Position numbers and translations under genes: made by a program. A model generated the notes under the pieces. The model was not told the origin of the DNA. It saw only the letters and a list, made by a program, of their open reading frames with translations, and made no database searches. This document shows positions 9,640-13,377 of a DNA stretch of 29,057 nucleotides, piece by piece. Numbering within the stretch: the first letter of the stretch is position 1; each line of letters opens with the position of its first letter. The DNA comes from a virus (taxonomy: Duplodnaviria > Caudoviricetes). The stretch spans positions 1 to 29,057 of the IMG/VR virus record IMGVR_UViG_3300020042_002006. One strand, 5' to 3'.

Positions 9640-10051
9640 CAATGACAAGGCAAGAGTGGGACACGATGCTACAGACTTTGCAGCATATGGGCTTTCAAAT
9701 CTTAGAGATCAATACGGAAACAGAGACAGTACTACTGCGCCCTATACCGATAAGATAAACGATGCTTTCATTGCAGATGTCTGGCGTATTATGGACCAAG
9801 CAGGCAACCTATTGGTGCGTAAGCATCACGACTACGGCCCAAAGAACATTGCTCACTCACCAGGTGGACCACTTAATGGTCTGCGTGTACGTATGTGGGA
9901 TAAGATAGCACGCATTAATAACCTATTAGACTCTGGCGTTGAGCCAAGCAATGAGTCCTTGCGTGATTCCTTCTTAGATTTATTAAACTATTCAGCTATT
10001 GCAATGATGGTCTTAGATGGCGTATGGCCTGAAGTGCAGGACAATGACTGA
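9632..10051 (+). CDS. DUF1599/Nmad1 nucleotide-modification-associated (MazG-like) protein
   Basis: RKHHDYG...RMWDKIARINNL...DSFLDLLNYS. Confidence 0.75.
   Translation: MYDNDKARVGHDATDFAAYGLSNLRDQYGNRDSTTAPYTDKINDAFIADVWRIMDQAGNLLVRKHHDYGPKNIAHSPGGPLNGLRVRMWDKIARINNLLDSGVEPSNESLRDSFLDLLNYSAIAMMVLDGVWPEVQDND
9636..9758 (+). CDS. Nested 40-aa ORF in the +1 frame of the DUF1599 gene
   Basis: ATGA overlap with the primase stop; MTMTRQEWDTMLQTLQHMGFQILEINTETETVLLRPIPIR. Confidence 0.45.
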   Translation: MTMTRQEWDTMLQTLQHMGFQILEINTETETVLLRPIPIR

Positions 10052-10505
10052 AGGCTTCTATAAAACTGACACGTTCAAGACATCTAACGATGATACGTGG
10101 ACTACACCTAAAGACTTCTTTGATAAGTTACACAAAGAGTTTAACTTTAGTTTGGATGCAGCAGCACTTGCTTCATCAACTCTGGTACCTGATAACTGGT
10201 ATGGTCCTGACCATCCAGATCACTTAAGGCGTGATGCTTTTACTAGAGACTGGGCTAAAGAAAGTTTTGGTTCTATCTGGTTGAATCCACCTTATGGTAG
10301 GACTATTAAAGATTGGGTACGTAAAGCTGACAGCGTTGCTAACGGGGGGGGGACAGTTGTGTGTTTAGTACCAGCACGTACTGATACTTCTTGGTGGCAC
10401 GAGCATTGCATCCATCACGAGGTTAGATTTATTAGGGGTAGATTAAAGTTTGGTAATCAAAAGAACTCAGCTCCATTTCCTAGTGCAATAGTGGTGATGC
10501 GATGA
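10044..10505 (+). CDS. Phage DNA N6-adenine methyltransferase (Dam, T1/HP1-type)
   Basis: WTTP..FF, FSLDAAA, WLNPPYG, LVPARTDTSWW and RGRLKFG motifs; start at ATG 10044. Confidence 0.9.
   Translation: MTEGFYKTDTFKTSNDDTWTTPKDFFDKLHKEFNFSLDAAALASSTLVPDNWYGPDHPDHLRRDAFTRDWAKESFGSIWLNPPYGRTIKDWVRKADSVANGGGTVVCLVPARTDTSWWHEHCIHHEVRFIRGRLKFGNQKNSAPFPSAIVVMR
10344..10352 (+). repeat. G9 homopolymer inside Dam
   Basis: AAC GGG GGG GGG ACA, in frame. Confidence 0.9.
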
Positions 10506-11134
10506 CTGAACTTCATCCAGTAATCTATGACCTCGTTCCTAGCGTTGCTAATGCTATTCATCGTAGGTATAACAAGCACGTTGAAAAGGATGACATCAAG
10601 CAAGAGCTAATGGCTTGGGCTATGACTAGATCAGCAGATCATACTGAAGATTTAATGGAGCCAATCGAAGAGCGACGCAGGCACAACGAGCAGCGCATAG
10701 CGTGGCAGATGAAGCGTGTAGCAGAACGCTATGCTCGCAAGGAGAAGGCATCCAAGTCTGGCTATCAGACTAATGATGAAGCCTACTACGAGTCAGCTAC
10801 CCTTGGTCAGTTGCTTCCCTTTGTTATTGCATCCGTCATTGATGGCACAGTATTAGAGCAAGCACAAGAGATGATTAGAGATGGACAACCCAAAGGCTCA
10901 TCATCTCCAGCAGAAGGTGGCAACCTACTTGCAAACCTTATAGACATCAAGAAAGGTTTTCTTAAACTAGATCAAGAAGACCAGGCTATCTTGCGTATGC
11001 GCCATCACGAGAGCTTTACCTTACAACAGATAGCACAGGTATTAGAGTGTGCTGTCTCTACTGCAGATCGTAGGTGTGCTCAGTCTTTGCGTAGGTTACA
11101 AGATAATCTAGGTGGGATTAGTCCCTGGCAATGA
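10502..11134 (+). CDS. Sigma-70-like factor (region 4 HTH)
   Basis: DDIKQEL (region 2-like); C-terminal L.....ILRMRH.ESFTLQQIAQVLEC..STA..R. Confidence 0.7.
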   Translation: MTELHPVIYDLVPSVANAIHRRYNKHVEKDDIKQELMAWAMTRSADHTEDLMEPIEERRRHNEQRIAWQMKRVAERYARKEKASKSGYQTNDEAYYESATLGQLLPFVIASVIDGTVLEQAQEMIRDGQPKGSSSPAEGGNLLANLIDIKKGFLKLDQEDQAILRMRHHESFTLQQIAQVLECAVSTADRRCAQSLRRLQDNLGGISPWQ

Positions 11135-11514
11135 ACGAAGAGTTACTGTTTGCTTTTTTGCGTGAGAACTTGTATCCAGATTTAGTAAAGTCTGAGGGCA
11201 TCTATGATGCCTATGACTGTATCTCTAGGCAAGCAGGTCATTACATAGAATTAAAGTGCAGGGCTACACACTATGACACCTTGCTGATTGAAGAGATGAA
11301 GTATCGCAAGCTCATCACCCAAGCAGCAGAGCGTGATCTAATCCCCTACTACATTAACTCTACCCCGCAGGGTGTCTTCTCCTTTGACCTTATGGATTTA
11401 CCGGAGCCTGTATGGTTTAATCATCAGATGCCAGCAAGCACAGAGTTTGATCGTGTTGATAAGGTTGACAAGTTAGTAGGTTATCTACCCATAGAGGAAG
11501 CGGTCCAGCTCTAA
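11131..11514 (+). CDS. PD-(D/E)XK-like nuclease
   Basis: YDC...YIELKCR. Confidence 0.65.
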   Translation: MNEELLFAFLRENLYPDLVKSEGIYDAYDCISRQAGHYIELKCRATHYDTLLIEEMKYRKLITQAAERDLIPYYINSTPQGVFSFDLMDLPEPVWFNHQMPASTEFDRVDKVDKLVGYLPIEEAVQL

Positions 11515-11745: not shown

Positions 11746-12168
11746 TTAGGAAACCTTAGCCACTTCTACTATATTCTGTACTATCCACTCTACCACAGGC
11801 ACAGCTACAGCATTACCCATCTGCTTATACCTGGTTGAGTCTGATTGTCCAGCAGTCCAATCATCAGGGAAACCCTGCAACCTTTCACACTCTACTGGAG
11901 TTAAGCGGCGCACACCGCTTTGATCTGAAAGCATTGACACGTTGTTTCCTCCCGTACCCATACGTGATGTAAGAGTATTCATAGTCTTGTCTTGTACTCG
12001 TGCTCCATCGTGGTAGTGAGGATGAAAGACAATGACTGTCGTTCGCACATCACCATTATCAAATGCGTTAAGCGTTGGCATTACTCCTCCTTCAATCCAA
12101 GTCTCGTAGTCATCCACATTCTGTGCTCGCCTACTCTTGGTGAACCACAAGGTTCTCACTTCCTCCAC
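11746..12168 (-). CDS. C5 cytosine methyltransferase, C-terminal part (variable region plus motifs IX-X)
   Basis: RRLTPVECERLQGFPDDW (IX) and RYKQMGNAVAVPVVEWI (X); start uncertain (GTG 12168, GTG 12159 or TTG 12150). Confidence 0.85.
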   Translation of the reverse strand: MEEVRTLWFTKSRRAQNVDDYETWIEGGVMPTLNAFDNGDVRTTVIVFHPHYHDGARVQDKTMNTLTSRMGTGGNNVSMLSDQSGVRRLTPVECERLQGFPDDWTAGQSDSTRYKQMGNAVAVPVVEWIVQNIVEVAKVS

Positions 12169-12943
12169 CTAGATCACCACCATTGGCACGCAAGGTGCCA
12201 ACTCCTTCTATGTATCCACCAAAAGATGATGAAGTAACAACCACATTATCTTCAGGTCTTTTGTAAGTAGTAGCTGTAAGTGTTGTTACTCCTGGTGAGT
12301 ACTTGGCGAAGCCTGTTTGACCAAAGCTTTCTTGAGTACTTCCGGTAGTTCCTTGCCCCGCTTGCTTGCTCGTCGAAGGATTCCTTCGCAAGCCCTCGGA
12401 CTTAAAGAGTATTTCTGCAACGCCTCCGCTAGTAGCACGTCTCCCAACGACGAAGACTCTACGCCTGCGCTGGGGTACTCCGAAGTGTTGAGCATCAAGC
12501 ACACGCCATCCGACAGAATACCCGATGTCTGCCATCGTTCCGAGGACGACTCCAAAATCTGCTCCTTTGTTACTGGATAACAAACCAGGGACGTTTTCGA
12601 TGATGAAGTATTCTGTTTGCGTTTCTTCCACAAGTCTTGCAATCTCCCAGAATAACCCGCTTCGTTCGCCAGCAAGACCAGCTCTTTTGCCAGCAACGCT
12701 GAGGTCTTGGCAGGGAAATCCTCCTGTAATAATTCCTGTGCTTGGTGTAAATCCTGCATTTATTAGATCCTCTCCCTTAACTGTAGTCACATCTGTAAAT
12801 TGGGTAGCGTCAGGAAAATGCTGCGCCAATACCTGATTACAGTTCTTATCTATCTCAACCGAGGCTACTACCTTTACTCCTTGTCGTTGCATAGCTAAGT
12901 CAAAGCCACCAACGCCTGCAAATAAACTAACACCGGTCAGCAT
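12131..12943 (-). CDS. C5 cytosine methyltransferase, N-terminal part (motifs I-VIII)
   Basis: SLFAGVGG (I), GGFPCQDLS (IV), ENVPG (VI), PQRRRRVF (VIII); ATG 12943 is TGATG-coupled. Confidence 0.92.
   Translation of the reverse strand: MLTGVSLFAGVGGFDLAMQRQGVKVVASVEIDKNCNQVLAQHFPDATQFTDVTTVKGEDLINAGFTPSTGIITGGFPCQDLSVAGKRAGLAGERSGLFWEIARLVEETQTEYFIIENVPGLLSSNKGADFGVVLGTMADIGYSVGWRVLDAQHFGVPQRRRRVFVVGRRATSGGVAEILFKSEGLRRNPSTSKQAGQGTTGSTQESFGQTGFAKYSPGVTTLTATTYKRPEDNVVVTSSSFGGYIEGVGTLRANGGDLGGGSENLVVHQE
12286..12759 (-). CDS. Alternative-frame nested protein resembling the M.EcoHK31I beta polypeptide
   Basis: GGGAGAGG RBS 9 nt before ATG; 157 aa; RWQTSG...NTSEYPS...SLGDVL...YSLSPRACEGILRRASKRGKELPEVL. 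Confidence 0.7.
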   Translation of the reverse strand: MQDLHQAQELLQEDFPAKTSALLAKELVLLANEAGYSGRLQDLWKKRKQNTSSSKTSLVCYPVTKEQILESSSERWQTSGILSDGVCLMLNTSEYPSAGVESSSLGDVLLAEALQKYSLSPRACEGILRRASKRGKELPEVLKKALVKQASPSTHQE

Positions 12944-13377
12944 CAGTACCACCCTCTTCTGTCGCTATGTTGGAGAGCGCGACACGCACTCCCTCCATAG
13001 CGGTGACTAAGGTATCGTAAGCCGTGAAGGATTTGAAGTTCAGGTTGTCCACTACGCTCTCTAAGGAGTTGAGCAATTCCAAAAGCCGAGCTTCTTGGTT
13101 TGCCCTCAGCGTCTCTTGGGCGAGCAAGGTGGTCGAAGCGGGATTCACGGGTCCATAAGGTGACAAGACATCTGATTTGGTCTTGATTGTAGCCGAGTGC
13201 TCGTGCGTAACTAACTGCAAGTGACTTGTTCTCACGCTTCTCCTCCATTGTTGCCTTCGTTCTCTCCTGCATTACTGGAGTATGCAAGATCGTTTGCTCC
13301 GTTGGCTCGTGTGTGTACGCCCACCCTAAGAACAGTAGTGCCATCAATACTAATCCACTTTTTGCCTTGTAACTCAT
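12943..13377 (-). CDS. Secreted/membrane-anchored lytic transglycosylase-like protein
   Basis: N-terminal hydrophobic segment; CLVTLWTRESRF...SSAFGIAQLL...GLRYLSHRYGGSAC.A...GWY; GGAG before ATG 13377. Confidence 0.8.
   Translation of the reverse strand: MSYKAKSGLVLMALLFLGWAYTHEPTEQTILHTPVMQERTKATMEEKRENKSLAVSYARALGYNQDQIRCLVTLWTRESRFDHLARPRDAEGKPRSSAFGIAQLLRERSGQPELQILHGLRYLSHRYGGSACRALQHSDRRGWY

Follow-up and report, generated by a model that had tools for sequence, protein, structure and literature searches.

M.EcoHK31I is an E. coli C5-methyltransferase of two chains, alpha and beta, that acts at YGGCCR and whose beta chain is encoded in the +1 frame within the alpha gene (PMC2836561; PMC3404938). 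Its beta holds motif IX, its alpha holds motif X, and a restriction nuclease gene adjoins the pair. M.AquI is described with two chains as well, motifs I-VIII lying on one and the distal variable region with motifs IX-X on the other (PMC3404938). The multispecific orphan methyltransferases of Bacillus temperate phages are single polypeptides in which the linker is in frame and a series of short variable cassettes separates motif VIII from motif IX (PMC12707154). Streptococcus phage MM1 carries orf13/orf14 (GenBank DQ113772), annotated as 'C5 methyltransferase alpha subunit / beta subunit', and mycobacteriophage Omega carries split halves, gp127 and gp128; passages on the mycobacteriophage methylases in PMC3706429 and PMC2884959 make no mention of a nested gene. 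Both the principle of a nested beta (M.EcoHK31I) and a split in the variable region (M.AquI) are already published, and GenBank already lists, for MM1, a nested phage beta that lacks motif IX, so that the original prediction for the locus described here, a tripartite, dual-frame enzyme, overrated its novelty. In the literature searched, whose coverage of older and subscription papers is thin, we found no account of a three-piece layout or of a shift of the linker between frames.

Results

The window analysed here, by which we mean the whole stretch of DNA, is a linear virus record of 29,057 bases with 45.7% G+C. Its plus strand encodes a helicase, a primase, a Cas4-like nuclease, a sigma-like factor and a Dam-family adenine methyltransferase, and its minus strand contains a C5-methyltransferase region whose catalytic core has its nearest annotated relatives among the enzymes of cluster J mycobacteriophages (64%). 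The C5-methyltransferase motifs (PF00145), including the catalytic Pro-Cys, ENV and RxR, are distributed over two open reading frames, both scoring above the Pfam cut-off, with motifs I-VIII on the one that we call alpha-N and IX-X on gamma. Alpha-N (12131..12952, minus strand; 273 codons; PF00145 positions 2-165, E 5e-56) continues after motif VIII with a poorly conserved stretch and two cassettes resembling target recognition domains (TRDs; 12146..12325, minus strand). Motif IV, GGFPCQ with the catalytic Cys (12707..12724, minus strand), is invariant in alignment A3, as are Q161, R163 and R165 in motif VIII, PQRRRR (12458..12475, minus strand). The real start of alpha-N is probably the ATG at 12943, which has the better ribosome site (-7.2 versus -0.1). 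We also note that a transglycosylase-like ORF (12943-13377, minus strand) stops at 12943 and so abuts this likely start, which suggests coupled translation, and that a second orphan methyltransferase, of the Dam family (PF05869), lies at 10017-10505 on the plus strand, 1.2 kb from the C5 locus.

Entirely within alpha-N lies a further open reading frame (12286..12759, minus strand), +1 relative to the methyltransferase frame, with an ATG at 12759, a TAA at 12286 and a predicted product of 157 residues, beta, that matches phrog_16143 (E 2e-10). As originally predicted, this same-strand alternative frame stays open over motifs IV-VIII, and it is free of stops against an expectation of 5.7, calculated from the host protein and the codon usage of the window. 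Applied as a control to twelve ORFs of the window, the same statistic gave 184 stops against 196 expected, and when the host gene was recoded synonymously 20,000 times, 11 of the versions had a +1 stretch of this length. The frame starts 13 codons upstream of motif IV and ends about 60 codons past the start of motif VIII, and it therefore extends beyond the catalytic core. The strong ribosome-binding site claimed for it is also present, a purine-rich site followed by a 9-base spacer (12760..12778, minus strand) and an ATG right behind two in-frame stops. Its pairing with a generic anti-Shine-Dalgarno tail, at -7.5 kcal/mol, falls in about the top 1-5% of random positions in the window.

Conservation was followed in 80 viral loci that were picked by the host protein and are close relatives, some of them near-identical, and thus not independent. 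The +1 frame is open over 153-166 codons in all 80, and breakage of the frame in homologues, which would have spoken against the original prediction, was not seen among them. No stops occur in the beta frame of the 78 analysable loci against 471 expected (a comparison between loci that are not independent), or in that of five loci of less than 90% identity, for which 30 are expected; in the stretch upstream of beta the +1 frame of the relatives holds 450 stops versus 314 expected. All 65 distinct loci have a start codon no more than ten codons past the upstream stop, which is ATG in 46 of them and TTG in 19, with a median pairing of -7.5.

Constraint on synonymous sites, proposed earlier as a check, reverses along the gene. 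Upstream of beta, changes that are silent in the beta frame amount to 17 of 95 and those silent in the host frame to 77 of 97, whereas after motif VIII changes that are silent in beta and alter alpha reach 56 of 85 possible, with 17 of 83 for the reverse class; over motifs IV-VIII both frames are constrained. Judged from these substitutions, selection shifts past motif VIII from the host frame to the +1 frame, and this reversal of constraint is the strongest sign that the nested gene is selected. Identities after motif VIII in the +1 and host frames are 70/48, 58/28, 46/33 and 39/37% in the groups that carry beta, being higher in the +1 frame in three of them and about equal in the MM1-like group, and 23/48% in the group without beta.

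Part of the similarity among betas is a shadow of alpha conservation, as beta-less genes reach as much as 32 bits at positions 7-94 of the beta profile, its first two thirds, and for this reason only the part of beta beyond motif VIII counts as independent evidence. These shadow scores also lend something to the view that the whole +1 frame is a shadow of conserved methyltransferase codons or an untranslated relic, as do a +1 frame open around motif VIII in 6 of 24 beta-less genes (genome and phage samples) and the result from the Atlas, in which beta falls into three unnamed clusters at 0.95-0.96 with a recognition value of 1705, below the 2300 mark. We regard this view as very improbable, however, in the light of the avoidance of stops, the reversal of selection after motif VIII, the conserved start with its ribosome site, and the homology of beta to a chain that is experimentally required, the beta of M.EcoHK31I.

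The sequence used for the comparison with M.EcoHK31I was located by means of a primer published in the supplement of PMC2836561, which led, in 81 of 5,426 E. coli genomes, to a 309-residue methyltransferase with a nested 176-residue +1 ORF beside a NotI-family nuclease; we regard this locus as either the EcoHK31I system itself or an allele nearly identical to it. The residue pattern given in the original prediction fits the beta sequence retrieved in this way, and alignment bears out the proposed kinship, in that residues 60-151 of the window beta are 38% identical over 92 positions to residues 21-111 of the EcoHK31I-type beta (E 5e-13). The family beta profile scores 101.8 bits on the latter versus 11.8 bits for the best of 2000 shuffles. 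The two alpha chains are 51% identical over 164 residues in an alignment that ends at residue 170, the end of motif VIII, and the beta-beta alignment continues for about 45 codons past that point. The window beta shares with that of M.EcoHK31I its full nesting within alpha and its +1 offset. Unlike it, the window beta stops before motif IX, as predicted; motifs IX and X lie instead on a third ORF, and the locus is phage-borne. By sequence, the nested gene resembles an M.EcoHK31I beta minus motif IX, but stands outside strict membership of the M.EcoHK31I type. MM1 likewise has a phage gene with a nested +1 beta lacking motif IX (141 residues; 33% identical over 121 residues), although its alpha, which includes IX and X, is unsplit, its beta stops short of the second helix, and its roles are assigned by annotation. 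Omega and its cluster J relatives have the split halves and a 157-codon +1 ORF that is 42% identical to the window beta, but the two halves share one frame, and the nested ORF is unannotated in AY129338.

Gamma (11746..12150, minus strand; PF00145 positions 257-323, E 1e-17; alignment A4) consists of 134 residues counted from a TTG, in a frame that is open from 12168, and contains two further TRD-like cassettes. Motif IX (11913-11857, minus strand) matches that of the EcoHK31I-type beta at 15 of 25 positions, and motif X (11832-11791, minus strand; alignment A4) is likewise found on gamma and not on alpha-N, which ends at 12131. The alpha-N stop and the likely TTG start of gamma overlap at 12131..12150 (minus strand), where the junction is conserved and the ribosome site pairs at -9.3; 50 of the 55 loci with this junction keep such a TTG, 14-20 bases ahead of where the alpha stop ends. 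The split C-terminus that the original prediction had described is a feature of the whole set of relatives. Motif IX lies within the host ORF in none of the 80 and outside it in all 76 in which it is in view (in four it is not), the location being an overlapping +1 ORF in 64 and some other arrangement in 12, some of which may be assembly errors. A two-base assembly error or sequencing slip, or a fresh mutation, was rejected as the origin of the break between alpha and gamma, as the break is present in all 76. M.AquI is similar in that it is split in the variable region with IX-X on a separate chain, but only two chains are described for it, whereas the window has a third, nested and selected frame.

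The junction bears on a two-chain alternative, in which a programmed +1 frameshift near 12150 fuses alpha-N to gamma and yields, as in MM1, a full alpha accompanied by beta. The 64 relatives in which gamma overlaps the alpha stop in the +1 frame at a conserved junction are in keeping with such an event, and the cassette boundary would be seamless. Nonetheless we think it quite unlikely, in that a slippery run is absent from the junction, gamma has a ribosome site of its own, and the break is not fixed in place but varies between cassette boundaries, lying elsewhere in three relatives (L013, L044 and L045) in which gamma has ATG starts. The Omega halves, moreover, are separated by a stop and then a new ATG seven bases later in the same frame. 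Because the break shifts among cassette boundaries and Omega has a stop followed by a new in-frame ATG, separate but coupled translation of gamma seems likelier than a frameshift. There is also an in-frame ATG at 12081 (minus strand) inside gamma with a ribosome site (-10.4) stronger than that of the TTG, and a shorter gamma without half a cassette would be possible from it; the Met is not invariant in the relatives. Mycobacteriophage Goose gp80/gp79 (L316:1280-2273) shows another two-frame split, in which the C-terminal half starts in the +1 frame over motifs VII-VIII and has no beta core.

The four short cassettes, two on alpha-N and two on gamma, vary across 63 loci by gain, loss and change of order, and those at the end of alpha-N may be kept, missing or swapped. 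By their position and by analogy with the Bacillus phage enzymes, which are likewise orphan phage enzymes with a cassette array, they are likely to be TRDs. Multispecificity, which had been part of the original prediction, we infer only from this shuffling.

The best conserved part of beta is its core, residues 94-151 (12307..12480, minus strand), a linker-like motif with a predicted two-helix hairpin, recognizable by profile match, pLDDT and conserved columns. Modelled alone, beta has a mean pLDDT of 60 and is confident only over about residues 101-150 (pLDDT 71-96). The model gave no informative match among 48,161 PDB chains (best Z 4.5), and the beta profile gave none among PDB sequences; in the viral library BFVD the model matched only an 81-residue protein of mycobacteriophage Thibault (E 1e-3) and a 521-residue cytosine methyltransferase (E 3e-3). 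The Thibault protein (G1FGG9) resembles the beta core; Thibault is without the cluster J methylase according to PMC3706429, and the modelled protein is possibly a remnant.

The linker-like motif was followed, at a threshold of at least 8 bits, with a profile for which 53 beta-less phage enzymes, and no others, provided the in-frame segment that follows motif VIII. In beta-bearing loci it is found in the +1 frame in 160 of 279 and in the host frame in one of 279 (119 of 279 score below 8 bits), and it is found in the +1 frame of none of 99 beta-less loci. It scores in frame in 71 of the 72 loci that make up the group it was derived from, including the 53 training sequences, and in 5 of the remaining 27 beta-less loci. 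A looser form of the pattern is missing in frame from 26 of 51 beta-less enzymes. Profile-profile comparison pairs the linker with beta residues 94-134 (probability 92.5%, E 5e-7), at a score of 37.6 versus at most 13.0 in 40 column shuffles. The profile scores 0.2 bits on the window beta, 0.8 on the EcoHK31I-type beta and 35 on the MM1 beta, and the apparent link between linker and beta rests on family profiles and on intermediates such as the last of these. The linker aligns in frame with residues about 247-275 of PDB 4dkj/8c56 and in solved one-chain enzymes directly follows motif VIII, the same region in which complementing fragments of M.SssI start best (PMC3404938). M.EcoHK31I keeps some activity in cells, at a lowered level, when as many as 50 residues are taken from the N-terminus of its beta, and activity drops sharply between deletions of 65 and 70 residues (PMC2836561); internal starts were leaky in that system. 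Residues 65-70 of the EcoHK31I-type beta align with residues 105-110 of the window beta.

The placement of motifs IX and X was classified in 77 loci, comprising the window, two named systems and 74 loci picked by beta (7 of 84 were not anchored). The two motifs are on alpha in 33, on a separate ORF in 33, split between beta and alpha in two, and unclear in nine. Natural fusions also exist in which beta, TRD cassettes and motifs IX-X form one chain (P0039, P0045, P0150, P0222, P0238, P0239 and P0275), and from this variety it follows that beta is kept with or without motif IX. Five single-member alpha-beta chimeras (P0050, P0058, P0077, P0085 and P0134) were rejected as true one-chain forms; they terminate where beta does and have the appearance of frameshifted copies. 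Among ten longer matches no full-length one-chain enzyme was found in which motif VIII is followed in frame by the beta core, a weak result since four were read and only one of the ten has PF00145.

Discussion

The kinship with M.EcoHK31I beta, a beta without motif IX and the conserved split of the C-terminus together point to three coding pieces in two frames. We consider it fairly likely, on the strength of these comparisons, that they belong to one phage C5-methyltransferase in which nested beta supplies the segment after motif VIII in trans and alpha-N, beta and gamma assemble. Beta would be a structural subunit, translated from its own ribosome site and giving in trans what one-chain enzymes hold just after motif VIII, and its first two thirds would likely be a tolerated leader through which translation from an upstream start arrives at the core. 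Gamma would be translated from the overlapping TTG, coupled to the alpha stop, and the three chains would form a single enzyme, an arrangement that is likely insofar as beta likely provides a structural piece that the main chain lacks. The four TRD-like cassettes would allow the enzyme to methylate several sequences in the phage DNA and so protect this DNA against host restriction.

A real beta might instead be accessory or regulatory, acting in stability, as a chaperone or inhibitor, or in coupling the translation of gamma, with alpha-N and gamma methylating alone. We think this unlikely, although several observations agree with it. Where motifs IX and X are on the alpha chain, that chain looks complete by the ten motifs; beta-less relatives exist within the beta clade; and the predicted helical hairpin (residues 121-150) is without a clear match in solved structures. 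The switch of the linker motif between frames, the fusions of beta with TRDs and motifs IX-X, and the EcoHK31I deletion series argue rather that beta is part of the fold. One point against supply of the linker in trans is that in M.EcoHK31I motif IX alone can explain the need for beta.

A wider version of the proposal, to which we lean slightly, is that a large branch of C5-methyltransferases moved the linker after motif VIII to the +1 frame as an overprinted subunit, and that TRDs, motif IX and motif X were then free to reside in the alpha, the beta or a third gene. M.EcoHK31I would be one such arrangement, its beta being needed for linker and motif IX, and this phage would encode an obligate three-chain multispecific enzyme in 1.2 kb; thousands of genes now annotated as 'complete' would yield no activity without the frame hidden in them. 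If true, this would provide a clear case of origin for a same-strand overprinted gene, in which a piece of an old protein lost its frame and was rescued in trans. In practice, codon optimisation of such methyltransferase genes for synthesis would abolish the hidden chain, and specificity screens would then return false negatives. An enzyme that naturally consists of three chains and has cassettes on its parts would also be a ready scaffold for the design of split methyltransferases.

By its matches, nested beta appears to be widespread and not special to this phage. It matches phrog_16143, 179 phage records and 541 plasmid records, and its family comprises 7,545 protein clusters at 50% identity (E <= 0.001), or 5,115 at E <= 1e-10, the weak cluster matches being in part perhaps shadows; if the proposal is true, M.EcoHK31I would be one member of this family and no longer an oddity. 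Beta is present in 3 of 54 methyltransferases that were not selected for it (59 less five seed loci), it is mostly unannotated among the phage matches listed, and it has no family match in Pfam or NCBIfam. An unpublished genome (G023) was excluded. A Citrobacter phage-like plasmid gene (L081:2083-4299), annotated only as Dam, is an unsplit C5-methyltransferase fused to a Dam domain with a nested 170-residue beta ORF. In a tree of 65 cores, six beta-less cores are nested in the beta clade and the MM1-like betas stand apart from the main one; since a single clade that includes the MM1-like betas is not rejected (p-AU 0.54), we make no claim of two origins of beta. RNA runs gave only small word shares, and the contigs of relatives in them cover the stretch at an identity of at least 85% and are silent on strand, frame and transcription.

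We also note two further features of the window. An ORF of 127 residues (11131-11514, plus strand), for which no Pfam or PHROGs match was found, contains a YIELKCR stretch that presumably resembles the motif of PD-(D/E)xK nucleases. CATG is absent from the window, where about 105 are expected per strand, and from all 80 related loci (L001-L080), CCSGG occurs 0 times versus 45 for CCWGG, and CCGG, CGCG and GGCC are at 0.42-0.47 of expectation. These missing or scarce sites likely reflect avoidance of host restriction sites, and may be a hint at the host or at the targets of methylation.
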